Virus record (IMG/VR): IMGVR_UViG_3300024246_000004
Coordinates: 27,446-91,445 of that record
From: a virus
Taxonomy: Duplodnaviria; Heunggongvirae; Uroviricota; Caudoviricetes
Direction: 5' to 3' (one strand)
Length of the DNA stretch: 64,000 bases
Each line of letters opens with the position of its first letter. Position 1 is the first letter of the stretch. Of the stretch, positions 848 to 54,335 are shown piece by piece. A model generated the notes under the pieces. It saw only the letters and a program-made list of their open reading frames with translations. It made no database searches and was not told the DNA's origin. A program made the position numbers and the translations under genes.

Positions 848-1092
848 ACTGTTCCCGGCAGCCAACATCGTACCGTTCTCCAAAGTGTGGTCGCTGCCAG
901 CGTGTGGTGTGTCCTTCCGGCGGCCAGCCGTGCGGCGAACCCCATTGTATCTGCACCGTCGGTTGCGATACGTTAGTCTCGCTCGGGTAGCCGGTTCCCA
1001 CACGGCTCCGGCTACCTGGGCAGACCAACTCGCCAAAGGGAACTCGAAACCCTGGAGTTCAACGCGAGGATCTGGTAAAGTACCAAATACGA

Positions 1093-1166
1093 CGCGGGGT
1101 AGAGCAGCTCGGTAGCTCGTTGGGCTCATAACCCAAAAGTCGCAGGTTCAAATCCTGCCCCCGCTA
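1093..1166 (+). tRNA. tRNA-Met(CAT), initiator-like
   Basis: Cloverleaf with anticodon loop CTCATAA; GGG/CCC pairs closing the anticodon stem; unpaired 1:72 (C.U); T-arm GCAGG-TTCAAAT-CCTGC. Confidence 0.7.
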
Positions 1167-1215
1167 CTAACCGTCAGGTTCATAATCTGTCGGTGCGATC
1201 GAATACCTTGACCGC

Positions 1216-1566
1216 ATGCCGTACAAAGATCCAGAGGCCCGTAACGCCTATGCGCGAGCCTGGTACGCGAAGAATCAAGAAACGCATGCAGAGCTCGTGC
1301 GCCGTAACCGGGCGCGAGTAAAGGCTGAGGTGACGGAGTACCTCGGGAAGGTTAAGTCACATCCCTGCACAGATTGTGGCGGAACGTTCGACGCAGAGGT
1401 CATGGATTTCGATCATGTTTCGGGCGTGAAGTCGTTCAACATCAGCTCCGCGAAACAAGTTGGATACAGCCTGAGTCGCGTAAAAAAAGAAGTGGCGAAG
1501 TGCGAGCTAGTGTGCTCGAATTGTCATCGTCTACGCACGAAAGCCCGTAGAACGGCTACCGAATAG
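1216..1566 (+). CDS. HNH homing endonuclease
   Basis: HNH motif ...DFDHVSGVK...CELVCSNCH...; sits between tRNA genes. Confidence 0.75.
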   Translation: MPYKDPEARNAYARAWYAKNQETHAELVRRNRARVKAEVTEYLGKVKSHPCTDCGGTFDAEVMDFDHVSGVKSFNISSAKQVGYSLSRVKKEVAKCELVCSNCHRLRTKARRTATE

Positions 1567-1572
1567 CCTAAT

Positions 1573-1645
1573 TCCCCGTTGGAGTAACTGGCAACGTCAC
1601 CGCGCTCTGGACGCGGAGTTCGAGGTTCGAATCCTCGGCGGGGAG
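1573..1645 (+). tRNA. tRNA-Gln(CTG) (D-arm weak)
   Basis: Acceptor TCCCCGT/GCGGGGA, anticodon arm CCGCG-CTCTGGA-CGCGG, T-arm CGAGG-TTCGAAT-CCTCG. Confidence 0.5.
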
Positions 1646-1746
1646 CGAGTGCAGGGGCAAACGCCTGCCAGCGTGCGTCTCGGGTTCGGAGTAAGGATGG
1701 CAGTCCCCTCCGGATCAGGTGGGCGCCTCAATCAAAGCCCACCACA

Positions 1747-1821
1747 TGGCCCGGTATCCCAACGGAAGTAGGAGCTCGGCTCAGACCCGAGTAATGTGTG
1801 GGTTCGAATCCCACTCGGGCT
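1747..1821 (+). tRNA. Atypical tRNA with anticodon CAG (Leu-type anticodon, short variable arm, A73)
   Basis: Acceptor GGCCCGG/TCGGGCT, conserved D-region TATCCCAACGGAAGTAGGA, anticodon loop CTCAGAC, T-arm GTGGG-TTCGAAT-CCCAC. Confidence 0.5.
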
Positions 1822-1822
1822 A

Positions 1823-1907
1823 CGCGGTTGTGCTGGAATGGGAGACAGGCTGGCTTGAGGTGCCAGTGTCCCGCAAGGGGCGTGGGGGTTCGACTCCCCT
1901 CAACCGC
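1823..1907 (+). tRNA. tRNA-Leu(GAG), long variable arm
   Basis: Acceptor GCGGTTG/CAACCGC, anticodon loop TTGAGGT, variable-arm hairpin GTCCC-GCAA-GGGGC, T-loop TTCGACT. Confidence 0.75.
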
Positions 1908-1982
1908 ACTCCACGGCTAGATTCAGAACGAAACCCAGACACCACGCGCCGTGGCCACTGTCCGCCAACGAAAGGGGAGGTA

Positions 1983-2156
1983 ATGGCTAGGGAACATAAG
2001 GCCGACCTGACCGCCATCAAGGGCGCGCTTCAGGCGAACATCAACATCAAGCTCGCTGAAGCGGAGCTGGACGAGCGCAACGACAACCCCGTCGAGGCCA
2101 GGAACACTCGGCGTATCGCCGCCGAGTGGCAGAAGGTCCACGACGGCACCACCTGA
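1983..2156 (+). CDS. Small hypothetical protein (57 aa)
   Basis: Strong SD AAAGGGGAGG 6 nt before the ATG; the upstream part of the 145-aa track ORF overlaps tRNA genes and is discounted. Confidence 0.5.
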   Translation: MAREHKADLTAIKGALQANINIKLAEAELDERNDNPVEARNTRRIAAEWQKVHDGTT

Positions 2157-2209
2157 TCGGCTCGGCGGCCACATACAGCACGAAACCCAGATACGTGCGC
2201 CGCTGTCCG

Positions 2210-2282
2210 CCCGCATAGTCCAACCGGCAGAGGCACCCGATTTAAGTCCGGGGAGTTGTGCGTTCGAATCGCACTGCGGGCA
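2210..2282 (+). tRNA. Atypical tRNA with anticodon TAA (Leu-type, short variable arm, A73)
   Basis: Acceptor GCCCGCA/TGCGGGC perfect; D-region TAGTCCAACCGGCAGAGG; anticodon loop TTTAAGT closed by an A.C mismatch; T-arm GTGCG-TTCGAAT-CGCAC. Confidence 0.45.
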
Positions 2283-2283
2283 C

Positions 2284-2356
2284 GCCCAGGTATCCCAAGG
2301 GAAGAGGAAGCGGCTTCAAGTACCGCTAGTTGTGGGTTCGAATCCCACTCTGGGCA
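2284..2356 (+). tRNA. Atypical tRNA with anticodon CAA (Leu-type, short variable arm, A73)
   Basis: Acceptor GCCCAGG/TCTGGGC; D-region TATCCCAAGGGAAGAGGA; anticodon loop TTCAAGT closed by a C.A mismatch; T-arm identical to the 1747 element. Confidence 0.5.
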
Positions 2357-2357
2357 C

Positions 2358-2430
2358 GGCCGTGTAGCTCAGCTGGTAGAGCATCCCGCTCATAACGGGA
2401 AGGTCGCAGGATCAAGACCTGCCACGGCTA
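2358..2430 (+). tRNA. tRNA-Met(CAT) elongator-type (or Ile-lysidine)
   Basis: GGCCGTG-TA-GCTC-AGCTGGTAG-AGC; anticodon loop CTCATAA; unusual T-loop ATCAAGA. Confidence 0.65.
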
Positions 2431-2436
2431 CGGTGC

Positions 2437-2480
2437 GACAGCTAGGCTTCCCCCGGGCCCCACGCCCGCCTAGCTGTCGT
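2437..2480 (+). other. Stable hairpin (11-bp stem CGACAGCTAGG / CCTAGCTGTCG)
   Basis: Perfect inverted repeat seen directly in the sequence. Confidence 0.5.
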
Positions 2481-2550
2481 GCTACGCTAACACGGCACCG
2501 CCTGGCGGCCGAGAGTAGCTCGAAACCCGTATAAGTCCCGCCGCCAGTAC

Positions 2551-2575
2551 CGGCTTGTAGCTCAATGGCTCAACG
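2551..2575 (+). pseudogene. tRNA 5-prime-half fragment (acceptor plus D-arm, GGCTTGTAGCTCAATGG...)
   Basis: Matches the 5-prime half of tRNA-Thr-like genes in this array; no anticodon arm, T-arm or acceptor 3-prime strand follows; the HNH gene starts 19 nt downstream. Confidence 0.45.
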
Positions 2576-2593
2576 TTGTGGTAGGGTTGAGCT

Positions 2594-3178
2594 GTGAAGC
2601 AGAGCTGGAATGACGATGATCTGCGCCATGCAGTAGCTCAAGCAACTTCATGGCGTCAGGTCTCTCGTATTCTCGGCCTACAAGGGACCAATCCAACTCG
2701 GCTGCGCACAAGAGCTCAAGTTGCTGGCGTAGATTTCTCGCACTTCAAGGGGAGCAGATCCTTTTCCGATGAAGAGCTTCGGGATGCGGTCGCTGAGTCA
2801 GCAACTCCTTTCGAGGTGCAAAAGCGCCTAGGGAGGGGTGCGTGGCATTCAATTCAGAGGCGCATAAGGGAGTTGGGGCTAGAGTTTGGCCTGCCAGCAC
2901 CTGACTCGCGTCGAAAAAGTCTCAACCTAGTACTGACCCCCAACTCGACCTACCAGTCTGACAGGACACGCAAACGCCTCGTCGAAGCCGGACTAAAGGA
3001 GGAGAGGTGCGAGGGATGCGGCCTGGCGGAATGGCTAAATGGCCCGATACCCCTTCATCTCGACCACATTAATGGCGTGCACAATGATAACCGCCTAGAG
3101 AACCTTCGTATCCTCTGCCCCAACTGCCACTCCCTCACTCCCACGTGGGGAAACCGCAAGCGACCTTTGGCCTCCTAG
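2594..3178 (+). CDS. HNH homing endonuclease (paralog of 5554..6066)
   Basis: C-terminal CEGCG...HLDHINGVHNDNRLENLRILCPNCHSLT; about 50% identical to the 5554 ORF over its length. Confidence 0.75.
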   Translation: MKQSWNDDDLRHAVAQATSWRQVSRILGLQGTNPTRLRTRAQVAGVDFSHFKGSRSFSDEELRDAVAESATPFEVQKRLGRGAWHSIQRRIRELGLEFGLPAPDSRRKSLNLVLTPNSTYQSDRTRKRLVEAGLKEERCEGCGLAEWLNGPIPLHLDHINGVHNDNRLENLRILCPNCHSLTPTWGNRKRPLAS

Positions 3179-3240
3179 CTCAGTGGTAGAGCGCTTCTTT
3201 CACACAGAAGAGGTCCCGAGTCCGATTCTCGGGGAGGCTA
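3169..3240 (+). tRNA. tRNA-Val(CAC)
   Basis: Acceptor GGCCTCC/GGAGGCT; anticodon arm CTTCT-TTCACAC-AGAAG; T-arm CCGAG-TCCGATT-CTCGG; its 5-prime end overlaps the HNH stop codon TAG. Confidence 0.7.
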
Positions 3241-3348
3241 CGCGTCCGCCAACCCTAGAGAACTGCTGCAATGTGGCAGGGCACGGGAGAAGCAGCTCCC
3301 ACGCCCAGGCGGATGCCCCTGGGGCACCTAGGAAGGCCGCTGGGGTTA

Positions 3349-3423
3349 CAGCCTATGGCGCAGCTTGGCAGCGCGCCTGGTCGGGGACCAGGAGGTCGCC
3401 AGTTCAAATCTGGCTAGGCTGAC
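3349..3423 (+). tRNA. tRNA-Pro(GGG)
   Basis: C1-G72 acceptor CAGCCTA/TAGGCTG with A73 (bacterial Pro signature); D-arm GCGC-AGCTTGGCA-GCGC; anticodon loop TCGGGGA; T-arm GCCAG-TTCAAAT-CTGGC. Confidence 0.65.
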
Positions 3424-3476
3424 GTTGTGGTGGTCACGTAGCGTACGAGACCTATACCAAGCACACCGCCACGCAC

Positions 3477-3548
3477 CGCCTCGTAGCTCAGCGGCAGAGC
3501 GCCCGCCCGACACGCGGGAGGCCGGACGATCAACACGTCCCGAGGCGA
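3477..3548 (+). tRNA. tRNA-Val(GAC)
   Basis: CGCCTCG-TA-GCTC-AGCGGCA-GAGC; anticodon arm CCCGC-CCGACAC-GCGGG; unusual T-loop ATCAACA. Confidence 0.6.
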
Positions 3549-3583
3549 CGATCATCGGCAGGATGCGACAGGAGACGGACACC

Positions 3584-3760
3584 ATGGATACGGCAGCAGC
3601 CGAAACGAAGACCGCGCTTTCCACGGGGATCCTGGATGCGCGCGCCGTGCCGCTCGGGCGCCTTGCCCAGGAGGGCAACGGCTCGGAGGGAATGTCCCGC
3701 GTGCTGCCCGGCTTCGACGCCAAGAGGGTCGCGGTCGCGTCGTTCCAGTCCTCGGTCTAG
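3584..3760 (+). CDS. FxsA-like small protein with FXSXX-COOH C-terminus (...ASFQSSV)
   Basis: SD AGGAGA 7 nt upstream; C-terminal F-Q-S-S-V; paralogous to the next ORF. Confidence 0.55.
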   Translation: MDTAAAETKTALSTGILDARAVPLGRLAQEGNGSEGMSRVLPGFDAKRVAVASFQSSV

Positions 3761-3792
3761 CGGTCGCGATCCTCGACAGGAAGCAGTGGGAG

Positions 3793-3960
3793 ATGGACAG
3801 CACGGACGTGCTAGTGTCTGAGGTTCCCGACCTCAGGATGATGAGCCTCGCCGATCTTGCGCGGCTGCATTCGGGGAGGGCTCTGCAGAAGGTCGTCGCG
3901 GAGGCCCTGGAGCCCTCCGCCCGGCAGGTCTCCGTGGCGGCGTTCAACTCGTCCATCTAG
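3793..3960 (+). CDS. FxsA-like small protein with FXSXX-COOH C-terminus (...AAFNSSI)
   Basis: 55 aa; leader-like segment LPDLRMMSLADLARL...ALQKVVAEALE followed by AAFNSSI-COOH, the hallmark of the actinobacterial FXSXX-COOH (FxsA) family. Confidence 0.6.
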   Translation: MDSTDVLVSEVPDLRMMSLADLARLHSGRALQKVVAEALEPSARQVSVAAFNSSI

Positions 3961-3966
3961 TTTCAC

Positions 3967-4040
3967 GCGCCCGTAGCTCAGCGGATAGAGCGCCGCCGTC
4001 CTAAGGCGGGCCGTCGCTGGTTCGAATCCAGCCGGGCGCA
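3967..4040 (+). tRNA. tRNA-Arg(CCT)
   Basis: GCGCCCG-TA-GCTC-AGCGGATAG-AGC; anticodon loop GTCCTAA; T-arm GCTGG-TTCGAAT-CCAGC. Confidence 0.8.
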
Positions 4041-4159
4041 CCGTCTCTGGCCATTGTGGATGCGAAAACCTTGCGGTACCCGCCGGGGGCGTGATACGTT
4101 AATCGAGTCGGCAGCCGAAAAGGGTGCGGAAACCCGGATCTCATCGCCGCCGACGCACG

Positions 4160-4345
4160 ACCGATCGGATCCGCTCCAAGGTTGGACGTCTTCCTGTCTC
4201 GGCCCTTGGCGACCGACCGGCGTACCACAAGCACCACCCGGCGATCGTGGCTCGAACTCGAAGTGAGTCCCGAGTCGCCGGTAGCACGGATCGGCGGCTT
4301 CAAGGTTGGGTTTCTGGACTTCTTAGCCCTTGGCCGTCGATCATA
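4160..4345 (+). repeat. Two ~60-nt direct repeats (about 4160-4215 and 4285-4345) sharing GATCGG...CAAGGTTGG...GCCCTTGGC
   Basis: Seen by eye; each copy contains the CCAAGG/CCTTGG inverted pair; no cloverleaf could be folded. Confidence 0.4.
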
Positions 4346-4417
4346 GGTGGGTAGCTCAACTGGTAGAGCGCAGGTCTCCAAAACCTGTCGTTGGGGGTTC
4401 AAGTCCCTCCCCACCTG
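4345..4417 (+). tRNA. tRNA-Trp(CCA)
   Basis: AGGTGGG-TA-GCTC-AACTGGTAG-AGC; anticodon loop CTCCAAA; T-loop TTCAAGT. Confidence 0.8.
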
Positions 4418-4419
4418 CG

Positions 4420-4491
4420 GTGAGTATGGCCGAGCGGCTTAGGCACCGGTTTGTGGAACCGGGCAGACGGGTTCGACCCCCGTTACTCACA
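4420..4491 (+). tRNA. tRNA-His(GTG)
   Basis: Perfect acceptor GTGAGTA/TACTCAC; anticodon arm CCGGT-TTGTGGA-ACCGG; T-arm ACGGG-TTCGACC-CCCGT; a G at position -1. Confidence 0.65.
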
Positions 4492-4631
4492 CGTTCCGTA
4501 GCGTCAGCCTGGTGAGCGGCTACGGAGTTCGGCGAGCGGCACTGACCAACGTCCCAGTACCCAGAAATGGGGATAGAAACAGTCGCCGAATACACGAACG
4601 ACCTGCCCCGACGCGCACGCGGGCAGGCGGT

Positions 4632-4661
4632 CCGCCGAGCCCGATCACTCGGCGGACCGGG
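4632..4661 (+). other. Strong hairpin (11-bp stem GGTCCGCCGAG / CTCGGCGGACC)
   Basis: Perfect inverted repeat in a non-coding spacer of the tRNA array. Confidence 0.45.
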
Positions 4662-4735
4662 AAGTCTGGCGACGGAGTTGGGCCAGACCGGGCGGGCTGA
4701 CGTGGGTTAGGCCTTCCACAAAGTAAACTGAATAC

Positions 4736-4808
4736 GCGCCTGTAGCTCAGCGGAGAGAGCGCCTCACTACGGATGAGGAGGCCGGGGGTTCGAATCCCTC
4801 CAGGCGCA
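4736..4808 (+). tRNA. tRNA-Arg(ACG)
   Basis: GCGCCTG-TA-GCTC-AGCGGAGAG-AGC; anticodon arm CCTCA-CTACGGA-TGAGG; T-loop TTCGAAT. Confidence 0.85.
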
Positions 4809-4809
4809 C

Positions 4810-5545
4810 GAGCGATCGCCGTAGCTCAAAGGCCCGAGAGGACGCCTTATCGGGAGAGCCCCGCTGTACCCCATTAAGGGTGAACGACGGGAGATCCGGC
4901 CGAACCGGCGACGATCCTCCGGGTGTGCTGTACGCCCGGCCAAAAGAGGGACCATGGCCCTCGGCAGCGGCAAGGAGCGAAGGAAGCCTCATCGGGAGGT
5001 GTCTTGACGGCTGGTGATGTGAATGACGAGCCGTCACGTGGGCGAGGGAGCAGATCACACTGTAGCCCGAGCCCTGGAGGTTCGACCCCTCCCCTTTGCA
5101 CGGCAGGTGGCCGCCAGAACCCTTACCTGGCGGACGGAGAGGCCAACCCGGGACAGTGGTACGCGTAGCGGAATGCTCCCCGAGTAAGATCTCCGTACTC
5201 GTAGTAGCGGGCCCTGCGCTTTGACGGGTGGTCGGTTGAGGCAACCACACCGGAGCGTTTGGGGTCGCTCCCCCTCCGGAGATACTGGTTCGAATCCAGT
5301 CCCGTCAGCGCTCCGGCGATTGCAAGCGCCGGTGATGGACACGCGGGTGCGCACTCGTGTGGAATGGTGTACGTGGAGACGGTACGGATAGGGCCCCCTG
5401 AAGGGCCTGATTCCGGGACGGGCGGGTTCGAGTCCCGCAACACCGCGAACGACAGCCAAACAGGGCCCGGTATCCAACATGGGTGCGCTGTCGGTCATGG
5501 CGCCTTAGCTCAGTTGGAAGAGTCTGTCGGACCTGAGCTATATTG
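4810..5545 (+). ncRNA. Zone of tRNA-like elements and fragments that do not fold into standard cloverleaves
   Basis: Three canonical T-arm motifs (GGAGG-TTCGACC-CCTCC near 5085; ACTGG-TTCGAAT-CCAGT near 5295 with a perfect 7-bp acceptor TGACGGG/CCCGTCA spanning 5223-5313; GGCGGG-TTCGAGT-CCCGC near 5445), plus 5-prime fragments GGCCCGGTATCCAAC (5466) and GGCGCCTTAGCTCAGTTGGAAGAG (5499-5535). Confidence 0.35.
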
Positions 5546-5553
5546 TTTCCCGT

Positions 5554-6066
5554 ATGGCTCGATACAGCAAGAATCGGTGCAGATGGACGGATGAACAACT
5601 CAGGGAAGCGGTCGCCAGCAGTCAATCGATCCGCCAGGTCATCGGGATACTCGGCCTGTCGGTGACGGCGGCCGGGAACTGGGGTACGGTCAAAAAGCAT
5701 GTGAGTCGGCTCGGGCTGGACACCTCCCACTGGACGGGGCAATCCTGGGTGGGAACCCGCGAAAACCACCCGGCACGACTCCCTCTTGAACAGATATTGG
5801 TACCAGGTTCAACGTACAGAACTTCTGCGCTTCGAGACCGCCTCATCGGAGCTGGACTCAAAGAATGGCGATGCGAAAGGTGCTTGCGGATCGACTGGGA
5901 GGGGGATCGCATTCCCCTTGAGGTGGATCATGCGAATGGAGTGCCGGACGACCATAGGATCGAGAATCTGCGCTTGCTCTGCCCCAATTGCCATGCGTTA
6001 ACGCCGACATGGCGCGGGCGCAAGAACGCTAGATCATACCACGGCAACGTAGCTGAGAAGGATTAG
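5554..6066 (+). CDS. HNH homing endonuclease (paralog of 2594..3178)
   Basis: C-terminal CERCL...EVDHANGVPDDHRIENLRLLCPNCHALT; preceded directly by a tRNA 5-prime fragment. Confidence 0.75.
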   Translation: MARYSKNRCRWTDEQLREAVASSQSIRQVIGILGLSVTAAGNWGTVKKHVSRLGLDTSHWTGQSWVGTRENHPARLPLEQILVPGSTYRTSALRDRLIGAGLKEWRCERCLRIDWEGDRIPLEVDHANGVPDDHRIENLRLLCPNCHALTPTWRGRKNARSYHGNVAEKD

Positions 6067-6248
6067 CGAGGCTCTGAAAAAGCCTAGAGGCTGGATCGTT
6101 ACCAGTCGTTGCCACGCGGTACAAGCCTGCAAGAAGGCGAGTGCGCAGCTTCGTGTCATAGGCTGCCGAAGACCGATGGCCCTATCGGATGCCATGCTGG
6201 TCGGCTAAGCGAAGCCGCGTCCCCGGCTCGTACCCGGGGGCCGTACCT

Positions 6249-6339
6249 GGAGAGGTCGCCTAGTCCGGTCTATGGCGCCGACCTGCTAAGTCGGTGGGTT
6301 CCGCAAGGGGCCTCATGGGTTCGAATCCCATCCTCTCCG
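6249..6339 (+). tRNA. tRNA-Ser(GCT), long variable arm
   Basis: GGAGAGG/CCTCTCC; anticodon arm CCGAC-CTGCTAA-GTCGG; T-arm ATGGG-TTCGAAT-CCCAT. Confidence 0.8.
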
Positions 6340-6419
6340 CGCAAAACAGTTGGACAGCCCAGCGTGGATGAGATACGTTAGTTCTCGCAGGGGTTCGAGC
6401 CAGGGATAAGCTAGGCGGG

Positions 6420-6466
6420 CCTGTAAAGCCCTACCTTGGAGGTTCGAATCCTCCCGGGCCCACCAA
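6420..6466 (+). pseudogene. tRNA-like minihelix (acceptor GGGCCTG/CGGGCCC plus T-arm GGAGG-TTCGAAT-CCTCC) lacking D and anticodon arms
   Basis: Only 13 nt lie between the acceptor 5-prime strand and the T-arm. Confidence 0.35.
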
Positions 6467-48523: not shown

Positions 48524-48526
48524 GGC

Positions 48527-49570
48527 TTACTGAGTCGCCAGATTCAGGCCGCTGCCGCTACCGAGAGATAGCAGCCCCTTCGGGAGCGCGCCCAGTTCGT
48601 CGATCGTCTGGCACGCCGGGCAGTTCTTGTAGCCCGCCTCCTTGGCCGCGTTCGCCTCGGCCTGGAGCTGCGCCTGCTTGACCAGGGCCTGCTGCTTCGA
48701 GACCTCCGCGTACGCCGCCTGTGCGTCGTTGACCGCGCCCTGCACGTTGCTCGGCAGCGAGACGCGCACGATCGTGAACCGCACGCCGGTCAGGAACTGG
48801 AACGGCTTGCCGCCGTGCTTGGCGAGGTCCGAAGCGTCCACCGCCGTGTTCAGCTGAGTGTCCAAGTCCTGCTGCAACGTGGCGTTGATCTTGTCCTGCA
48901 CGGCCGCGATGTTGCCGTTGTTGTTCACGCCGCCGGTGACCACGGCCGCCTGCTGCGTCGAGTTCTGCACCAGCGCACACGCGCTGTCCAGCTCGGCGCA
49001 GGACGTCTGCGCCACGAGCTCGCGCAGGTCGTTGTTCAGGATCGGCCGTACCGCCACGTCGATGAACGCGCCCCACCCCTGGTCACCGTCGTAGGCGTGG
49101 AACGCGTTGCCGTTGTCGGTGTAGGTGCGGGTGCCGTACAGATTGTCGAACACGCCGAGGGTCTGGTGGTCGAGGTTCAGGCTGTAGTACAGAGTGCCCT
49201 CGATGCCCATCTCCACGCCGTCGGAGCTCGGCGTCTGCACGACGTCCACGCCCACCTTGTCGCCCTGGTTCGGGTCGGCCGAGATCGTGTACGTACGCTG
49301 CTGCGCCGGGTACGTGTGGATCGTGGAGTAGATGCCCGTGTTGGTCATGCTGCTCTGCGGATCCAGGAAGCCGCGCTCGTTGGAGTTCGAGAACCAGCCT
49401 CCGTTGCGCTCCACGCCGATGTGTCCCGCGTCCATGCTCTGGAACGCACCGATCCACGGGAACAGGAAGATCATCCCGACGGTGACGCCGACGACGCCCA
49501 GCAGGCCGCAGCCGACGAGCTTCGCCGAAACCTCCGGCACGCCGGACGTGTTGCGCGAGTAACCGCTCAT
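48527..49570 (-). CDS. Membrane-anchored protein, possibly SPFH/band-7-like, with C-terminal coiled coil
   Basis: N-terminal TM helix, beta-rich middle, Ala/Gln-rich C-terminus; SD GGAGGGGTGT-ATG. Confidence 0.4.
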   Translation of the reverse strand: MSGYSRNTSGVPEVSAKLVGCGLLGVVGVTVGMIFLFPWIGAFQSMDAGHIGVERNGGWFSNSNERGFLDPQSSMTNTGIYSTIHTYPAQQRTYTISADPNQGDKVGVDVVQTPSSDGVEMGIEGTLYYSLNLDHQTLGVFDNLYGTRTYTDNGNAFHAYDGDQGWGAFIDVAVRPILNNDLRELVAQTSCAELDSACALVQNSTQQAAVVTGGVNNNGNIAAVQDKINATLQQDLDTQLNTAVDASDLAKHGGKPFQFLTGVRFTIVRVSLPSNVQGAVNDAQAAYAEVSKQQALVKQAQLQAEANAAKEAGYKNCPACQTIDELGALPKGLLSLGSGSGLNLATQ

Positions 49571-49598
49571 ACACCCCTCCATTCATTCGATGCTTCTC

Positions 49599-50498
49599 TT
49601 ATCCCCCGGGCGCGTTCACCGTGACTTTCGCGCTGAATAAGGCCCGGAAGTTCAATCGCGGCGGCTGGATGATGGGTTCCGGTTCACCTTTGGCCGCGAA
49701 GCCTGTGTGCCAGCCGTGGAACTCGCTGGGGCGCGGCTCCTGCACGGCTGGGGCCTCCTCGAACGAGGGCAGCGGCGGAATGTGCCTCGCCAGCCACGCA
49801 TCCGGAGCGGCGGTCATCGAGGGAGCGTCCTGCATGAGCCACCGGACATCGACGCTGCCGAGTTCCTGGCGTACACAGACCCGGCCGTAGCGGAACGCCT
49901 TCGGCTCGTCGATCCAGTAGACGCCCTTCTCCTGCTCCAGTTTGTCCTCCAGTTCGACCCCGCCGAGGCCCTGGATCTCGCCGTGGGGGAAGTGTGCCCG
50001 TGCCAACATGATCTTGGAGTTGCGCTCCGTGTCGCGCTGCCGCCACGCGAAGTAGTTTGCGACTTCGACGGCGTTCGGAAGCGGGAAGACCCGTGCGTCG
50101 AACATGCCGGGGCGGCGCAGGATGACGCCGGGTTCGCGCGAGTAGCCGAGGAACGCCAGGGTGGCGATGGCGGAGCTGATGGACGCGATCTTCTGGACGC
50201 GTCCGCCGAACCACGGCTGGGTGCGGTAGTCCTCGTACCCACATACCAGGACACTGACTTCGTCGGACTGCTGGTAGGCGAATACCGCGCCGCCGATCTC
50301 GGCGCACAGCGCCTGGGCGACGTATCCCATGTACCGGGCCACGACCGTGTCGAACGGCTTGTCGGCACCGCGCAGCAGGGTGTGGAACGCCCGGCCGTCC
50401 ACGCGGATGATCGCAGGCAGGTAGCGGGGCAGGATGCTGCCGGTTGCGGCCTCGTAGGCCTTCATCCGGTCACCGAGACCAGTTCCGTCGCTCGCCAT
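49599..50498 (-). CDS. Thg1-like protein (tRNA-His guanylyltransferase family; 3-prime-5-prime polymerase for tRNA 5-prime end repair)
   Basis: MKAYEAATGSILPRYLPAIIRVDGRAFHTLLRG...FAYQQSDEVSVLV matches the Thg1/TLP N-terminal catalytic core; SD GAATGGAGGCGCT-ATG. Confidence 0.65.
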   Translation of the reverse strand: MASDGTGLGDRMKAYEAATGSILPRYLPAIIRVDGRAFHTLLRGADKPFDTVVARYMGYVAQALCAEIGGAVFAYQQSDEVSVLVCGYEDYRTQPWFGGRVQKIASISSAIATLAFLGYSREPGVILRRPGMFDARVFPLPNAVEVANYFAWRQRDTERNSKIMLARAHFPHGEIQGLGGVELEDKLEQEKGVYWIDEPKAFRYGRVCVRQELGSVDVRWLMQDAPSMTAAPDAWLARHIPPLPSFEEAPAVQEPRPSEFHGWHTGFAAKGEPEPIIQPPRLNFRALFSAKVTVNAPGG

Positions 50499-50569
50499 AG
50501 CGCCTCCATTCGTGAGCCGGGGACCGACGGCGGTCCGATCATGGGAATCGCAGTTCCTTGGGCCGTCGG

Positions 50570-50725
50570 TGTGCATAACGTATCACGTTCACTTCAGTTC
50601 TCGCAACCGCCCCCGGACGCACAGTGCACTGGGCTTCGGGTCGTCGATGGTCCGGGAGCGGCCGGTCGCGGAGGAGGGCTGGGTCTCGCTTGACCTCTGG
50701 TGACCGGCATAACGTATCACGCCTG
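50570..50725 (+). promoter_or_regulatory. Two direct copies of GGCATAACGTATCACG (50575 and 50708) in the divergent region between the Thg1-like gene and a rightward 4-gene unit
   Basis: Seen directly; 133 bp apart. Confidence 0.5.
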
Positions 50726-50834
50726 TACGCCCAAAGGAATGAACCTCCTACTATCCACACACGAAAGAGCGTATGTTGGTCGCGTAACGACGACAGGAGG
50801 CACGGTGGAGCGGGAAGAACCCGAACAGGAAGAC

Positions 50835-50972
50835 ATGATCACTCCGGCGATGCAGACCGCCATCTCGACCCACGAGATGTTCACGGCGCTGCGCCAGGCC
50901 GGGTTCTCGCGCAGCGAGGCGCTCACCATCGTCATCGGCATGCTCTCCGCGAACAGCGGATCAGGCGATTGA
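50835..50972 (+). CDS. Small hypothetical protein (45 aa)
   Basis: SD GAACAGGAAGAC-ATG. Confidence 0.4.
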   Translation: MITPAMQTAISTHEMFTALRQAGFSRSEALTIVIGMLSANSGSGD

Positions 50973-50973
50973 C

Positions 50974-51210
50974 ATGTGGCCCAACGACCTCGCCGAGGCG
51001 CAGAACCCGATCACCCGCAGCCTGGTGCGCTTCCATCCGTCAGTGCACATCGAGAACGCCGCGCAGTTCGACTACTTCTACGCCGCCTTCAAGGAATACT
51101 GCGAGGTCGCCTACCGCCTCGCGCACCTCGATCCCGGTCATATCGACGCACCTTACGGCTGGGTGCTGCCTCGTGAACCCCACATGCTTCCGGAGGAAAC
51201 CCGTGGATGA
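50974..51210 (+). CDS. Hypothetical protein
   Basis: ATG overlaps the upstream stop. Confidence 0.45.
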   Translation: MWPNDLAEAQNPITRSLVRFHPSVHIENAAQFDYFYAAFKEYCEVAYRLAHLDPGHIDAPYGWVLPREPHMLPEETRG

Positions 51211-51391
51211 GCCGATCTCCGCTTTCGGACGCCCCTATCACGCCGACGACACCCGCGTGCTGTTCTGCGGTGCCGCCGGTCCCTGGTGCGGCTGGCTGCG
51301 CACGAGCAACAACGAAGCGCAGCACACGCGGTTCGTCGCCGAGCGCGAGGAGCACCAGGACGGCTGCAAGAGCGGCCTGGTACGCCTGTGA
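51203..51391 (+). CDS. Cys-containing small protein
   Basis: SD GGAGGAAACCC then GTG. Confidence 0.45.
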   Translation: MDEPISAFGRPYHADDTRVLFCGAAGPWCGWLRTSNNEAQHTRFVAEREEHQDGCKSGLVRL

Positions 51392-51855
51392 CGACTTGGA
51401 GCAATCTGGCGCGGGTCGTCGAGGCCCGCGCTACACTCCCCAGTCCGGCCGAGCGCAGGCGGTTGCGCATCGACGCGGGCATCACGGTCAAGTCGCTGGC
51501 CCAGGTCCTCGGCATTTCCGTGAGCGCCATGAACTCGCTGGAGCGCGCGGAGAACCCCGGCGAGAAGTACCTGGTGGACTATGTTAACGCGCTCAATACG
51601 ATGCGCCGCCCCGCGCCGGAACCCGCACTCACCACGCAAGAGGCCGCTGAACTGCGCGAGCAGTGGGAGAAGTCCCCCTGCGGGGCCTGCGGAGGCCTAC
51701 ACGTCACGGCCCTGAAAACTCCCGGGGCGTGCCCGCGCATCAAGCGGATCGCCTACGACGCCCAGGGCCGTATGCTCGAAGTCGAATACTGGCCGGACGG
51801 CAAATGGCCGAAAGACGGCATCATCTGGCCGGACGGGATCATGGCGGAAGAGTAG
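51388..51855 (+). CDS. XRE-family HTH transcriptional regulator
   Basis: LRIDAGITVKSLAQVLGISVSAMNSLERAEN HTH; GTG coupled to the upstream stop. Confidence 0.6.
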   Translation: MTTWSNLARVVEARATLPSPAERRRLRIDAGITVKSLAQVLGISVSAMNSLERAENPGEKYLVDYVNALNTMRRPAPEPALTTQEAAELREQWEKSPCGACGGLHVTALKTPGACPRIKRIAYDAQGRMLEVEYWPDGKWPKDGIIWPDGIMAEE

Positions 51856-51861
51856 CCCCGG

Positions 51862-51911
51862 CGCCGCGAGCGCCCTGGTTATCGTTTTTGTCTCGGGCGC
51901 CGGGACGACTA
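51862..51911 (+). terminator. Hairpin CCCGGCGCC...GGCGCCGGG with an internal CGTTTTTGTC
   Basis: Seen directly, after the XRE gene. Confidence 0.4.
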
Positions 51912-51977
51912 AAGTAGCAGGGTCACGTGACATTGACGAGTTCTGGCGCTACGATAACCACGATGGGAGCACTGGCG

Positions 51978-52166
51978 ATGGAAATCCCCCTGCGCCGCAA
52001 GTACAAGTCCGCGAGCGCCAAGAACACGCGTTCGACCAGTAGCACCTCCGGCTCCTCGAAGCAGAAGCGCAAGGGTCAGAGCGTGAAGAACGCGCCGACC
52101 CGTATCCGCGTGCTCGTCTTGGTGGATGGACGCCGCCGCTCCTGGACTTGGCGGGACGTAAACTGA
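51978..52166 (+). CDS. Small basic Lys/Ser/Arg-rich protein (62 aa)
   Basis: SD GGGAGCACTGGCG-ATG. Confidence 0.45.
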   Translation: MEIPLRRKYKSASAKNTRSTSSTSGSSKQKRKGQSVKNAPTRIRVLVLVDGRRRSWTWRDVN

Positions 52167-52168
52167 GC

Positions 52169-52212
52169 GAACCGGCCGCCGCGCTGACCCCCGGCGGCCG
52201 GTTCTATTCTGC
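52169..52212. terminator. Strong bidirectional rho-independent terminator (12-bp stem GAACCGGCCGCC / GGCGGCCGGTTC followed by TATTCT)
   Basis: Seen directly, between convergent genes. Confidence 0.7.
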
Positions 52213-52262
52213 GGCGGATCTTGATATGGGCTACGCGCCTGTTATGGCCGCCAGGCCGCTGC

Positions 52263-53390
52263 TCACTCGTACTCCGTGCCGCCCTTGCGCTCCAGGTAGG
52301 CGTCACTCACGAACTTCAGGATGGCCCGGCCGCCGAGGATGCCCGAACGCCGCTCCGCCATCGAACGGACCACGACCCCCTCGCGCAGGGTGTCCGGGTC
52401 GAGCATGCTCTGCTTGACCTCGGCGAACGCGGCGAGCAGCCCGTAGTCGTACGGCCCCTGATACACCAAGGGTGCGCGGGGAACGCCGGTGCGGTTGGCG
52501 AACGCCCCCAGGTATCCCTCGGAAAGCCAGAACGGCTCGCCCTCCACCGGCACGAGGTACGCGTCGAACAGGGCGTAACCGAGCGTCTCGTTCCGGCTGG
52601 CGTCCGCGCCGTAATGCAAGTCCTGCACGCCTTTGCCGTACACCTCCCCGAACAAGCCGACCGCGCGCACGCCGTAGAACTCTTTGGCCGCCAGCGCGGC
52701 CTCGCGCAGCCGGTACTGGCGCGCGGCGCGCCAGTAGAGGTTGGTCTCCGACTCCTTGAGCGCCAGGCTCTTGCCGCCGAAACCCTTCGAGGAGACGTAC
52801 TCGCGGCCATCCTCGGCCAGCGTGTACAGGCAGCACGTACCGTGGATCTTCTCCGTGGCGACCACCATCTCGCCGGGCGTGAAGACCTCCGGGTAGCGCT
52901 TGACGTTCTCGATCTCGATCCAGCGGATCAAATCCGGTGCCGACTCCACTTCACCAGCCATGCCGACGGGGATTGGCGGAATCCACTTGGTGATGCCGAG
53001 GGCTTCAGCGAAGTCGCTCTCGGGCGTCCAGGGCCCCTCCGATTCCGGCATGGCGTTGGCGGCCCACTCCCACACCTCCCGCATCGCACCCCACTCGAAG
53101 GGGACGCCTTTCGGGCGGCAGACGATGCCCTGGGATAGCTCGCCGCGCAGTCGCACCGCCTTGACGCGGTTCTTCGCCGGGCCCGCGAGCCTGCCGGTCA
53201 GGCCGAGCTCCTCGATGAGCGCATCCGGCAGAACCGCCTGCTCCGGGATGTACAACGCAAGCTCGCCGTCCTTATAGACGCCCTTCGGTACGACGGCGCG
53301 GAACAGGCCCACCTGGGCGAGTTCCAGCAGATCGGCGTTGGGGTGCGGGAAGATCCGCAGCTTCTCGACTTTGACCTCGAACCCTGACAT
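52263..53390 (-). CDS. Rnl2-family RNA ligase with an N-terminal extension
   Basis: Motif I ATEKIHGTCC (KIHGT, as in T4 Rnl2-type ligases); the N-terminal 160 aa are an additional domain. Confidence 0.5.
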   Translation of the reverse strand: MSGFEVKVEKLRIFPHPNADLLELAQVGLFRAVVPKGVYKDGELALYIPEQAVLPDALIEELGLTGRLAGPAKNRVKAVRLRGELSQGIVCRPKGVPFEWGAMREVWEWAANAMPESEGPWTPESDFAEALGITKWIPPIPVGMAGEVESAPDLIRWIEIENVKRYPEVFTPGEMVVATEKIHGTCCLYTLAEDGREYVSSKGFGGKSLALKESETNLYWRAARQYRLREAALAAKEFYGVRAVGLFGEVYGKGVQDLHYGADASRNETLGYALFDAYLVPVEGEPFWLSEGYLGAFANRTGVPRAPLVYQGPYDYGLLAAFAEVKQSMLDPDTLREGVVVRSMAERRSGILGGRAILKFVSDAYLERKGGTEYE

Positions 53391-53400
53391 AAACCCCTAC

Positions 53401-54231
53401 TTACTCGTCGGTGAACGGCAGGTCCACCACCGTCCACGAGCCTTCCTTCGTGTAGCCCGCCCACTGCGCGCCGCTCGGATCGCAGTCCAGGCCGAACACC
53501 CAAGCGTGCCCACCGTCATAGGTGGGAATGCGGTCGGTGTACGGGAAGTGCAGGTGCCCGTGATACAGGCGCTTGGCCTGGAGTTCCGCCAGCGCGTGCT
53601 GGATGCGGCGCTGATTCGGCAGGCAATCGGCCAGGGCCTTGCGGTTCCACGGCGGGTTGGACCCGAACGGTTTGTCGTGACTGAAGATCACGTCCACCGG
53701 CGACGAGTCGGCGTCCATGATCGCCATGAACTGCTCGTCGGTCATCTCCTCCTCGGGGAACCACAGGGTGCCTGAGAAGTCTTTCGGGACGCCCGCCCAC
53801 TGAGCGGCGCGCTTCTCCGACTTCAGCGTGTTGACGTACTCCTCGGTGACGCGCCAGTCCTTGTCCACCGAATACGCCCCGCCGAGGGCGATGAACCGGG
53901 TGTCGGCCCACGTCCACCGGTGCCCGCGCGGCGCATAGCGGACATGCTTGCGGCAGACGAGGAAGCCCTCGTCGTCGCGGTTGTCCCCGTACTTCTCCAG
54001 CACCAGCGATGTCTTGTCGTGGTTGCCGTCGAGAAAGTACAGGATGACGCCGCTGTGCGCGGCGTGCCGCTCCACGTCGTCGAAGAACTTCACGCCGTCG
54101 GCGGTGTGTTCCCAGGCCCCGAAGTCGCCGAGCTGGAAGATCCGGTCGGCGCCAGCTTTCTTGGCCCGGCCCAGCAGGGTGATCACGTGTGTGCAATTGC
54201 CATGAACATCGCCAGCTATCAACAACTTCAC
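53401..54231 (-). CDS. Calcineurin-like metallophosphoesterase
   Basis: GDVHGN, GNHD and GHLH metal-binding motifs; SD GAAAGGGTTGCT then GTG. Confidence 0.7.
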   Translation of the reverse strand: MKLLIAGDVHGNCTHVITLLGRAKKAGADRIFQLGDFGAWEHTADGVKFFDDVERHAAHSGVILYFLDGNHDKTSLVLEKYGDNRDDEGFLVCRKHVRYAPRGHRWTWADTRFIALGGAYSVDKDWRVTEEYVNTLKSEKRAAQWAGVPKDFSGTLWFPEEEMTDEQFMAIMDADSSPVDVIFSHDKPFGSNPPWNRKALADCLPNQRRIQHALAELQAKRLYHGHLHFPYTDRIPTYDGGHAWVFGLDCDPSGAQWAGYTKEGSWTVVDLPFTDE

Positions 54232-54335
54232 AGCAACCCTTTCGTGTCGATGCCCAATGACGTTTTCTGCGTGTGCCTTGCACGGATTGTGGTCATCGAG
54301 CCGGACTAACGTATCACACGAGAAGCGGGGTGTCC

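Follow-up and report, generated by a model that had tools for sequence, protein, structure and literature searches.

Published bidirectional promoters are laid out so that the -11A of each direction is paired reciprocally with the -7T of the other (PMC10268837). We analysed a window of 64,000 bp (the whole stretch of DNA examined) from a novel phage with 65.8% GC, which carries genes for terminase, portal, capsid and tRNA repair as well as 36 tRNAs. We identified about 30 intergenic copies of the 9-mer TAACGTATC in this uncultivated high-GC phage, and the motif recurs in its relatives. From the sequence, we consider it fairly probable that the motif is the conserved -10 core of a clade-specific phage promoter family, read by a holoenzyme of the primary-sigma type (sigma-70 family). 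The reading enzyme would most likely be the host RNA polymerase holoenzyme.

Exact copies (TAACGTATC/GATACGTTA) number 16 in the window versus 0.09 expected from dinucleotide shuffles, with none of 100 shuffles reaching 16, which bears out the ubiquitous intergenic motif of the preliminary description. At one mismatch or fewer, 27 copies were found and none of them lies in predicted CDS, though coding sequence makes up 73% of the window; the gene map is our own GC3/codon-model call, partly checked against pipeline gene calls on the same contig. A first-order Markov model predicts 0.05 exact and 1.7 near-exact copies for intergenic DNA, and 0.04 exact and 2.0 near-exact copies for coding DNA, where neither kind was observed; equal frequency in coding sequence, earlier named as evidence against the motif, was not what we found. 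Each of the 22 coordinates listed previously holds a copy within a few bases, with one mismatch at 28043, 33925, 35380, 36052 and 47588 and two at 32590 (TAACGTAGA), which sits convincingly in a promoter context, and at 48203 (TAACGTACT). Five extra minus-strand copies (12715, 15531, 20632, 21778 and 22755) had not been listed. The one-mismatch match at 42816 (TAAAGTATC) is doubtful as a true copy, and 60873 (TAACGAATC) was rejected, being a stop codon with a terminator-like hairpin behind it. All copies left of 23 kb are on the minus strand and all those right of 26 kb on the plus strand. The copies had been described as often beside hairpins; this applies to only about 5 of 25 sites (967, 12715, 37169, 45458 and 47587), a minor association.

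The intergenic gaps of five related metagenomic phages are filled by the same motif (consensus gTGATACGTTAGTCc, other strand), which persists in orthologous as well as non-orthologous gaps of relatives with only 40–90% protein identity and was absent from phages with an RNA ligase at most 52% identical. Pooling this phage with the five relatives (six phages) gave 74 distinct sites.

The commonest form would be a promoter with an extended -10, whose strand reads gTG-A-TACGTT-AGTCc, with a predicted transcription start at the purine 7 nt after TACGTT, and it would drive the tRNA array and most small-gene operons. In the pooled sites, the TGn of an extended -10 appears as T at -15 (37/74) and G at -14 (63/74), the least conserved position of the 9-mer is its 'n' (A in 64, C in 9), and the seventh nucleotide after TACGTT is a purine in 52/74. 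At the place expected for a -35, the pooled logo also has T (-21) and G (-20/-19). As an unbiased check, 19 intergenic TGnTAnnnT sequences were collected from the window; TACGTT accounts for 8 of them and several more are its degenerate relatives, e.g. TGCTACTTTAGTC, the kind of graded family that promoters would form. Motif sites precede the first tRNA and fall within the tRNA array; the sites up to 13 kb are:

967–975, minus strand: exact copy, plus strand GCGATACGTTAGTCT, candidate promoter reading rightward into the tRNA array; first tRNA (1093) 117 nt downstream, TTGTAT 18 nt upstream of TACGTT, 14-bp hairpin next (981–1021).
4093–4101, minus strand: exact copy, plus strand GTGATACGTTA with a TGn-extended -10, candidate internal promoter of the array between tRNA-Arg (end 4042) and tRNA-Trp (start 4345); TTGCGG 18 nt upstream.
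6372–6380, minus strand: exact copy, plus strand GAGATACGTTAGTTCTC, candidate rightward promoter within the array; TGGACA 17 nt upstream has the top -35 score, and site and flank are conserved in a relative (L045 18084).
10449–10457, minus strand: exact copy, plus strand ATGATACGTTAAGCT, candidate rightward promoter past the array; TGGACG 18 nt upstream, plus-strand gene starts at 10466/10520.
12715–12723, minus strand: one-mismatch copy TAACGTAGC within a 14-bp hairpin (12688–12719), with no assignable gene start.

The heptad TAACGTA has a TAnnnT on each strand, and -11A is paired to -7T; this block could therefore act as a -10 for the other direction too, given a -35 on that side (TTGACR-N17-TAACGT). 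Such a use may be seen between 15.5 and 23.5 kb, where six paralogous candidate promoters TTGACGCATCACA-N10-TA[AG]CGTA are each followed by an RBS and an ATG about 30 nt on:

15531–15562, minus strand: leftward candidate promoter TTGACGCATAACG-N10-TAACGTAGC with the motif as -10 in the TAACGT register; 17 nt spacer, RBS and ATG following after about 30 nt (gene 14353–15498).
18407–18438, minus strand: member of the same family with variant -10 TAGCGTACG.
20632–20663, minus strand: leftward candidate promoter TTGACGCATCACA-N10-TAACGTATC, exact copy; GGAG and ATG 31 nt downstream.
21778–21809, minus strand: leftward candidate promoter TTGACGCATCACA-N10-TAACGTAGC.
22755–22786, minus strand: leftward candidate promoter TTGACGCATCACA-N10-TAGCGTATC.
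23459–23490, minus strand: sixth TTGACGCATCAC family member, -10 TAGTCT, motif likeness lost.

The -10 of this family thus changes gradually between the exact motif and TAGTCT with TAnnnT kept, and the last member therefore indicates that TAnnnT is the constant requirement in the TTGACGCATCAC family. Among the pooled sites, TTGACR/TGGACR at a 16–19 nt spacer was found on the TACGTT side in 11/74 and on the TAACGT side in 11/74, compared with a background of about 2 expected per side (2.8% per side) for a strong -35-like hexamer, and no site of the 74 has one on both sides. The association of TG with the side of the -35 is a trend only (p = 0.08). The 52/74 sites with a strong -35 on neither side are without independent support; actinobacterial promoters, like those with an extended -10, usually do without a strong -35. 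A scan with the E. coli consensus called none of the motif sites, because TAACGT matches TATAAT at 3/6 positions only.

The idea that one element may act as a -10 in either direction was thus supported by the equal -35-like hexamers and the reciprocal -11A/-7T; what a plain -10 leaves unexplained is a set of invariant positions. C-10, G-9, T-8 and the discriminator A-6 are nearly invariant in the pooled logo and are not known to be read by primary sigma, which suggests that a putative second, clade-specific factor likely also reads the site. Positions of the 9-mer were selected by the search itself (one mismatch or fewer), whereas the flanks were unselected, and there C-3 is strongly conserved (61/74). 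A GGCCA element 8–18 nt downstream in 17/74 sites, versus 4% background, is also unaccounted for by the -10 reading.

Right of 25 kb, the candidate promoters take further forms:

25543–25562, no strand: perfect 20-bp palindrome GAACGTATACGTATACGTTC, two overlapping inverted motif-like copies, located where a non-coding repeat region has its left edge.
26639–26647, plus strand: exact copy where the non-coding region has its right edge; TGTTACACT-6-GTG 5 nt later is a separate rightward candidate leaderless promoter (gene 26665), with an orthologous arrangement at L037 11250.
27127–27135, plus strand: exact copy, target gene uncertain (possible small leftward ORF 26923–27123).
27466–27474, plus strand: exact copy, minus strand GATACGTTAAACT-aaggac-ATG, candidate leaderless promoter (gene 27138–27455); the leaderless hexamer starts at the motif's terminal TA, and TGGACA lies 19 nt upstream of TACGTT.
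28045–28053, plus strand: one-mismatch copy TAACGTAGC; minus strand TACCCT-6-ATG 16 nt later (gene 27813–28016).
28777–28785, plus strand: exact copy overlapping the stop of a MarR-like gene; TGCTACACT-6-ATG 3 nt later is a rightward candidate leaderless promoter (ORF from 28803).
32589–32597, plus strand: two-mismatch variant TAACGTAGA, minus strand TCTACGTTAGGCT-gggcgc-ATG, candidate leaderless promoter (gene 32312–32578).
33925–33933, plus strand: one-mismatch copy TAACGTATA; TAGAAT-6-ATG 25 nt further on (leftward gene 33613–33885).
35381–35389, plus strand: TAACGTATA, flanked by divergent genes that lie 29 nt apart, conserved at L037 19569.
36051–36059, plus strand: TAACGTAGC, minus strand GCTACGTTATGTT-agtacg-ATG, candidate leaderless promoter (gene 35843–36040).
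37169–37177, plus strand: exact copy between two rightward genes; TATGCT 8 nt later.

The single copy that had been placed at 35377 as serving divergent genes was recovered at 35381, where the layout AGCTTA-ACGTA-TACCCT holds two back-to-back candidate leaderless -10 hexamers, each with an ATG at a distance of 6 nt. More generally, the TA dinucleotides at both motif ends would begin further TAnnnT hexamers 6 nt before ATG, yielding leaderless mRNAs. A T completing TAnnnT from the motif's terminal TA was found in 14 sites, with the start codon exactly 6 nt on in 8, versus 1/60 at this spacing in the remaining sites (Fisher p = 1.6e-6). The proposed leaderless transcripts agree with this geometry; the -10 there is not TAACGT or TACGTT but a third hexamer (TAAACT, TAAGCT, TATGTT, TAGGCT or TACCCT), which begins at either end TA and ends 6 nt before the ATG.

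Several rightward genes (26665 and 28803) have their own TGyTACACT-6-start candidate promoter 3–5 nt past the motif, which is therefore not their -10. All nine leaderless-geometry genes in the window have a motif within 35 nt at varying distance (overlapping, 3, 5, 16, 19 or 25 nt), a pattern more in keeping with a separate binding site than with a -10. The site may also be used by a phage-encoded binding protein. At 28777 and 37169, transcription in the common reading would run antisense into a gene, which speaks against the -10 explanation there. The sites further right are:

40345–40353, plus strand: exact copy, minus strand GTGATACGTTAGTCC, then GGAAGGAA (RBS) and ATG 24 nt on (gene 39901–40320).
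41414–41422, plus strand: exact copy, minus strand ATGATACGTTA, then GGAGGA and GTG 21 nt on (small ORF 41144–41392).
42816–42824, plus strand: doubtful one-mismatch copy TAAAGTATC, minus strand TGATACTTTAGAC.
45458–45466, plus strand: exact copy within a 13-bp hairpin (45441–45480), lying in its 14-nt loop, minus strand GTGATACGTTAGTCC.
47587–47595, plus strand: TAACGTATA, directly after a terminator-like 12-bp hairpin and TTTCT (47602–47636); minus-strand order is hairpin, TATACGTTAGTCC...CGGCCA, RNA ligase gene.
48205–48213, plus strand: two-mismatch variant TAACGTACT; the leftward genes on either side are 82 nt apart.
50576–50584, plus strand: exact copy, minus strand GTGATACGTTATGC with TTGCGA 18 nt upstream, candidate promoter of the Thg1 operon.
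50710–50718, plus strand: exact copy 134 nt upstream of the 50576 copy, probably a tandem leftward promoter.
51910–51918, plus strand: degenerate variant, minus strand TGCTACTTTAGTCGTCC.
54307–54315, plus strand: exact copy in the gap that separates gene 53401–54186 (minus strand) from the divergent portal gene (54336, plus strand).

The loop position described for the 45458 copy was confirmed, and in two relatives (L024 12480 and L047 11311) this site reads TACGTT-AGTCCC-ATG, a leaderless geometry, with the ATG of L047 coinciding with the pipeline gene start 11325. In the ortholog of 50710 (L047 6069), the TAACGT reading is broken (GAACGT) and TACGTT is kept. The region at 54307 (GACTAACGTAKCAC) has 17 invariant columns in a five-phage alignment with a mean column identity of 66%, a conservation that is confounded because the -35 overlaps the portal start codon.

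The sequence statistics show location, -35 spacing on both sides, TGn, leaderless spacing and conservation across relatives; initiation by RNA polymerase at the motif, the identity of the enzyme and sigma, and the timing in infection are what we infer. The promoter idea of the preliminary description was largely right. The copies would provide a useful expression map of the phage, but the kind of element itself is ordinary. TAACGT and TACGTT pair -11A with -7T reciprocally, like the bidirectional promoters of PMC10268837.

The motif, a 9-mer reading TAACGTATC or its complement, was counted on both strands of the window, and 16 exact copies were found against 0.09 expected from shuffled sequence. 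With up to one mismatch allowed there were 27 copies, and all 27 lay outside predicted coding sequences, though these cover 73% of the window. Under a first-order Markov model, 0.05 exact and 1.7 near-exact copies would be expected between genes, and 0.04 and 2.0 in coding DNA, where none of either kind was seen. The preliminary description had proposed a recurrent intergenic motif; the large excess over shuffled sequence and the lack of any copy in predicted coding sequences show that it is real, and every coordinate that had been listed holds a copy or a variant of it. The list had, however, overlooked five minus-strand copies between 12.7 and 22.8 kb, and the statement that copies often lie beside hairpins is true of only about 5 sites. 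Two of the 27 near-exact copies were unconvincing: the one at 42816 is doubtful, and the one at 60873, a stop codon plus a hairpin, was rejected. Copies within the window are about 0.3–4 kb apart, and the 10-kb structural-gene regions are nearly free of them. A literature search with the 9-mer returned only primers and unrelated matches.

The window has a G+C content of 65.8% and, as it carries terminase, portal and capsid genes together with a run of 36 tRNA genes, it belongs to a large tailed phage. It also encodes two RNA ligases, a Thg1-like enzyme and an SPFH protein, and the tRNA array co-occurs with a set of tRNA repair/maturation genes at 45491–53390. The gene map is our own call from a GC3/codon model and is approximate, start codons above all. 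The main features are as follows.

1093–9996, plus strand, run of 36 tRNA genes, 33 of them confirmed by Rfam
23958–25379, plus strand, large terminase subunit
31069–31464, RF-1-domain protein
45491–46318, PNKP-like gene, by homology to relatives
46390–47553, Rnl1-type ligase
49599–50498, Thg1-like gene
52263–53390, second RNA ligase
54336–57695, plus strand, portal protein
60933–62774, plus strand, capsid protein

Two additional minus-strand tRNAs were called by ARAGORN at 21554–21655 (Gly, 102 nt) and 31849–31921 (Ile), both unconfirmed by Rfam; the Gly call, which falls within a predicted gene, is probably spurious. The Rfam search returned tRNAs only. No close relative was found among GenBank phages by nucleotide and capsid-protein searches, and the sole nucleotide match to cultured phages, from a DNA-level search covering one 20-kb stretch (26000–46000), was a 60-nt stretch at 33817–33876. 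It lies within a 90-aa gene and shows 90% identity to a hypothetical gene that about 190 Cluster C-like mycobacteriophages carry. Homologs of the RNA ligase with 45–49% identity are common among Streptomyces genomes, which is a weak clue to the host group. No integrase was seen among the 60 proteins scanned, and the tRNA load also suggests a lytic phage.

The closest IMG/VR relative is a contig of 118,920 bp (sampled as loci L001/L002, L024, L037 and L045), with 40–90% protein identity to the window. It has the same block, usually as GGACTAACGTATCAC, in its intergenic gaps, including those of its own 37-tRNA array. Three further relatives, found via the protein database and taken with their flanks, also bear the motif (L047, L048 and L049, whose RNA ligases are 85%, 74% and 65% identical). 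No motif was found in L050 (ligase 52%) or in any more distant locus examined, so that the motif extends to phages with about 65% RNA-ligase identity but not to those with 52% or less. Alignment of the gap upstream of the portal gene from five phages gave a mean column identity of 66%, with 17 consecutive invariant columns around GACTAACGTAKCAC. These invariant columns and the clade-limited presence indicate that selection acts on the block as a unit and that it is restricted to a single clade.

By k-mer counting, the distant relatives yielded other lineage-specific repeats and no homolog of the motif, and each lineage appears to have its own. Two such repeats are intergenic and lie in structural regions: CAGAAATG-(hairpin)-GAGTAACAA, in 4–5 copies at L021 8139–11211, and a repeat of about 60 nt around AGCAATTCTCG, in 4 copies at L020 4690–7288. 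Nothing was found when metagenome contigs were scanned with the portal protein. Other observations on the relatives were a 1468-aa portal gene with Hint and LAGLIDADG matches in L048 (732–5138), hence probably an intein; consecutive genes for IF3 and the ribosomal proteins L35 and L20 in the same phage (12405–13546); and an IS605-type OrfB/TnpB with a Y1 transposase at 18601–20320 of the distant, motif-free L050.

We pooled 74 distinct sites from six phages and oriented them to read GATACGTTA, with the hexamer TACGTT on this strand and TAACGT on the other. The pooled consensus was g-T-G-A-T-A-C-G-T-T-A-g-t-C-c, and both hexamers, each of the form TAnnnT with A at 2 and T at 6, were present in all exact copies. 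As for an extended -10 element, T was found at -15 in 37 sites and G at -14 in 63, while the most variable position of the motif was -13, the "n" of TGn (A in 64 sites, C in 9). A weak T/G signal occurs 21–19 nt upstream of the motif, where a -35 hexamer is expected to start, and the 7th base after TACGTT, the predicted +1, is a purine in 52/74. The TGn, the upstream signal and the +1 purine fit a putative extended -10 promoter with TACGTT as its hexamer.

The -35 hexamers were scored on each side as TTGACR/TGGACR with a spacer of 16–19, at a threshold reached by 2.8% of random positions. Such a hexamer was present on the TACGTT side at 11 of the 74 sites and on the TAACGT side at another 11; no site had it on both sides, and the remaining 52 had none. 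The heptad TAACGTA/TACGTTA, read directly from the sequence, pairs the -11A of each strand with the -7T of the other. The motif would then be a -10 core usable in both directions and in three registers. The two-way -10 that had been proposed is thus favored by the reciprocal pairing and by -35s on either side, but the near-invariance of C-10, G-9, T-8 and a discriminator AGTCC does not suit a plain -10, nor do the two sites 28777 and 37169, at which transcription in the common reading would run antisense. By our crude gene calls, the nearest genes face the TACGTT direction only at 29 sites, the other direction only at 22, both at 14 and neither at 9.

The TAACGT-side group includes a six-member minus-strand family at 15531–23490 with TTGACGCATCACA-N10-TA[AG]CGTA, followed about 30 nt on by an RBS and ATG. 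Its -10 ranges from the exact motif to TAGTCT, with TAnnnT kept throughout. The 13-nt box shared by these six paralogous promoters, 10 nt upstream of TA[AG]CGTA, is longer than a -35 hexamer, and it was absent from the orthologous region of the relative (L037 1–8615). At 17/74 sites, mostly of the GTGATACGTTAGTCC type before leadered genes, (C)GGCCA occurs 8–18 nt downstream of GATACGTTA, against a background of 4%; examples are window 47565–47577, L024 7901 and L047 9186.

A scan with the E. coli promoter consensus called none of the motif sites, and its terminator calls were at chance level. We rejected an ECF-sigma reading (GGAAC-N16-17-CGTT/CGTA), as the distance of 20–21 nt from the GAC of the -35 to CGT fits a 17-nt hexamer spacing and not ECF promoters. 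A function at the RNA level was likewise rejected, because in each register the motif precedes the predicted start.

Of 96 predicted genes, nine carry a TAnnnT upstream of the start codon with its end 5–8 nt away, in eight cases exactly 6 nt away (background 1.7%), and in all nine the motif overlaps this hexamer or sits at most 35 nt upstream of it. In five of the nine, the hexamer starts with the TA at the end of the motif, four times on the TACGTT strand (TAAACT, TAGGCT, TAAGCT, TATGTT) and once on the other (TACCCT, at 35381). A T completes TAnnnT from this terminal TA in 14/74 sites, and a start codon follows exactly 6 nt later in 8 of these 14 versus 1 of the other 60 (p = 1.6e-6). Sigma-70-family promoters start transcripts 6–8 nt downstream of the -10, and in these leaderless-type sites the start codon falls exactly at that predicted +1. 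The association with putative leaderless starts suspected earlier is therefore supported, except that the hexamer concerned is mostly another TAnnnT beginning at the end of the motif. In two relatives, TACGTT is followed by AGTCCC-ATG, and in L047 that ATG is the gene start of the annotation pipeline. The rightward gene at 26665 and the ORF from 28803 have a separate putative promoter of the type TGyTACACT-6-start, 3–5 nt past the motif.

The single copy said to serve divergent genes does lie between such genes: the site at 35381 reads AGCTTA-ACGTA-TACCCT in a divergent gap of 29 nt, and it is kept in the relative at L037 19569. This leaderless pair uses two further hexamers, which places the predicted starts about 31 bp apart. 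Overall, the earlier observation is confirmed and its interpretation partly supported. The best-supported reading is that the block is the putative -10 core of a clade-specific promoter family for a primary-sigma-type holoenzyme; here we infer initiation from location, spacing statistics and conservation.

Besides the invariant positions with AGTCC and the antisense sites, the variable distance of the motif from independent leaderless hexamers does not suit a plain -10, and, together with GGCCA, these misfits suggest a second reader of the site, which may be either the main rival of the promoter reading or its complement. Proteins with HTH domains are candidates for this role.

28309–28779, MarR-like protein
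47614–47814, 66-aa HTH_17/MerR-like protein, syntenic in all motif-bearing relatives
51463–51855, XRE-type protein, ortholog 69% identical
L043 1376–1906 (in flanking sequence, 8 kb to the left of the window), 176-aa protein with a tandem pair of LuxR/GerE-type HTH domains (residues 25–89 and 105–164)

The motif could be an operator, that is, the asymmetric site of a phage-encoded DNA-binding protein that switches off or redirects many promoters together, with TAnnnT secondary. It would then resemble genome-wide switches such as the phiC31 repressor sites, or stoperators, with sites that overlap or adjoin promoters, and because the site is asymmetric the protein would probably bind as a monomer or through a tandem HTH. 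Some 12–15 positions are conserved, several of which are not known to be read by sigma, and conservation falls off sharply beyond the block; the register to the leaderless -10s varies (overlap, or 3, 5, 16, 19 or 25 nt, on either side). The use of both orientations relative to genes, the clade-specific occurrence, a perfect palindromic double copy at 25543–25562 and the existence of HTH_17, XRE-type and tandem-LuxR proteins all agree with an operator. However, the exact -35 spacing (22/74), a TG with a free "n" and the exact 6 nt to ATG would not be expected from an operator alone, and the -10 of the TTGACGCATCACA family drifts from the motif yet keeps TAnnnT. As to the candidates, only family-signature residues are conserved in the HTH_17 alignment, and identity between the tandem-LuxR orthologs is 41–43%, with the second domain the better conserved. 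A PDB sequence search with the tandem-LuxR, XRE-type and MarR-like proteins of this incomplete genome gave no match to a cluster A (L5-type) immunity repressor, of which the PDB includes a solved structure (PMC9283540). That the motif is primarily an operator is possible but rather unlikely. In L043, a motif copy with a -35 is found immediately downstream of the tandem-LuxR gene.

T4 gp55 and SPO1 gp28 recognize phage-specific -10 elements, and a phage sigma-like factor or sigma appropriator might similarly read the whole 12–15-mer, which host sigma alone would not. The invariance exceeds what a host -10 needs, most sites lack a -35, the motif is clade-specific, and generic actinobacterial-looking hexamers that could be host-read promoters (TACACT, TAGGCT, TAGAAT) adjoin it; moreover, a sigma-70 region 4-like/LuxR HTH protein is encoded upstream of the tRNA array. 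Against this, Pfam and PHROGs scans of 60 proteins, from about 74 kb of a genome of about 120 kb, found no sigma factor, including sigma region 2, and no RNA polymerase domain, and the tandem-LuxR protein matches response-regulator DNA-binding domains, not sigma factors. The -35s found are ordinary TTGACA-like hexamers with a 17-nt spacing and so imply recognition by region 4 of a primary-type sigma, and we consider a promoter for phage-modified polymerase improbable.

The copies also show a strand polarity in the window, as all those below 23 kb (9/9) lie on the minus strand and all those above 26 kb (16/16) on the plus strand, regardless of local gene direction. The flip brackets a repeat-rich non-coding stretch of 1.26 kb (25380–26640) immediately 3′ of the terminase gene, with the following elements.

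25543–25562, perfect 20-bp palindrome GAACGTATACGTATACGTTC, two inverted motif-like copies
25875–25913, perfect hairpin with 15-bp arms
25916, 26051, 26093, 26191, 26225 and 26282, ACTGG-N6-CCAGT, at least 6 copies

The relative has an equivalent repeat-rich stretch at L037 10040–11250 (e.g., ACTGGAGTACTCCAGT). The stretch at 25380–26640, with flanking motif copies pointing inward, is a candidate origin or packaging site. One could accordingly imagine a strand-polar element unrelated to transcription (priming, nicking, Chi-like or fork-related), oriented relative to the 25.4–26.6 kb region, and the turnover of cumulative GC skew between 12 and 24 kb and the spacing of the copies are in line with it. 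But the polarity is broken in the added sequence by L043 2035, L045 57, 4960 and 5960, and L002 1826, and L043 2035, L045 5960 and L002 1826 have a -35 on the matching side, which weakens a reading of polarity by genome position. Most of the pattern can be put down to gene layout: on the left the TACGTT reading runs with the rightward tRNA/early genes and on the right with the leftward small-gene operons, while the TAACGT reading serves gene blocks of opposite orientation. As such an element predicts none of the promoter geometry, and almost no copies occur across the 10-kb structural-gene regions, we regard it as highly improbable.

A -10 core and a protein site could also be one and the same. 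Tentatively, and we hold it doubtful, the 12–15-mer has a dual use as a reversible -10 module and as the single recognition sequence of an asymmetrically binding, clade-specific phage protein that chooses start points. At some 30 promoters, this protein would occupy the -10 or the spacer next to it and would select among 2–3 overlapping starts (leadered, leaderless or on the opposite strand), with the downstream GGCCA perhaps as a second contact and the 66-aa HTH_17 and tandem-LuxR-HTH proteins as candidates. If true, the motif would be a genome-wide switch of promoter direction and leader type.

Under the promoter reading, the motif gives a putative map of transcription for large, tRNA-rich phages of actinobacterial type that form an uncultivated clade, marking about 30 predicted operon starts in 64 kb, several of them within the tRNA array. 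It would be a clean natural case of one short block serving as a -10 both ways and in three registers, leaderless starts included. If host polymerase reads it, the 15-mer GTGATACGTTAGTCC may be a compact promoter part for high-GC hosts, and if a phage factor does, the sites define the regulon of that factor.

Short repeats next to genes have been described in several mycobacteriophage clusters. The SAS of Cluster K is a 13-bp asymmetric repeat, conserved across subclusters, that is found 3–7 bp upstream of the start codon and has the same orientation almost everywhere; it contains a Shine-Dalgarno core and is thought to be translational (PMC3203893). The motif is alike in being asymmetric, found next to gene starts in the non-structural half of the genome and conserved within its group. 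It is not an SAS, however, as it has no AGGAG/Shine-Dalgarno core, lies from 5 to >100 nt (to about 120) from starts and occurs in both orientations. With the 17-bp dyad repeats of Cluster O (TGTTCGGNNNCCGAACA), which are palindromic, present in >30 invariant copies per genome and in many cases inside genes (PMC4351075), it shares its shortness, clade specificity and many copies; nevertheless, it is asymmetric, strictly intergenic and promoter-shaped, while the dyad repeats lack TAnnnT, and we rejected this assignment also.

The stoperators of Cluster A are 13-bp asymmetric sites of the L5-type immunity repressor whose orientation follows transcription (PMC9283540). The motif is similarly asymmetric, of about 13 bp, clade-conserved and present in 20–30 copies at promoters and in short intergenic gaps genome-wide. 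It differs in that its orientation does not follow genes (29 one way, 22 the other and 14 both, by crude gene calls), and stoperators lack the promoter geometry.

A closer likeness is to actinobacterial extended -10/leaderless promoters. In Cluster O mycobacteriophages, leaderless transcripts are expressed from SigA-like promoters, which were predicted by their resemblance to the sigma-70 consensus (PMC4351075). The motif sites likewise have TGnTAnnnT with a weak or absent -35, and TAnnnT 6 nt before ATG with no Shine-Dalgarno, in the AT-richer gaps of a GC-rich phage. Unlike those of Cluster O, their hexamers are unusual and nearly invariant, with the conserved discriminator AGTCC and often GGCCA downstream, and they fail the sigma-70 consensus.

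In bidirectional promoters with a symmetric -10, the reciprocal -11A/-7T arrangement is the commonest configuration and sets the divergent starts at a distance of 18 bp (Warman et al. 2021, as summarized in PMC10268837). The heptad of the motif has the same pairing, with -35s at the right spacing on either side, and 14/74 sites face genes on both sides. Such promoters are defined by divergent starts 7–25 bp apart at the same site. No motif site has a strong -35 on both sides, and the leaderless pair at 35381 has predicted starts about 31 bp apart rather than 18. Most sites, besides, lie between co-directional genes, and the motif is far more invariant than symmetry requires. Given the mostly co-directional use and the lack of a site with a good -35 on both sides, the symmetry seems to be a reusable module rather than a device for simultaneous divergent transcription.

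Conserved promoter-like motifs are routine in phage genomes and, as a conserved phage promoter/operator motif, this element is of a familiar kind, although its sequence is new, as is the clade, and its reuse across several registers makes it a neat case. Among the systems compared, the best-supported parallel, judged from sequence, is that the motif may work like both an extended -10/leaderless actinobacterial promoter and a symmetric bidirectional -10.
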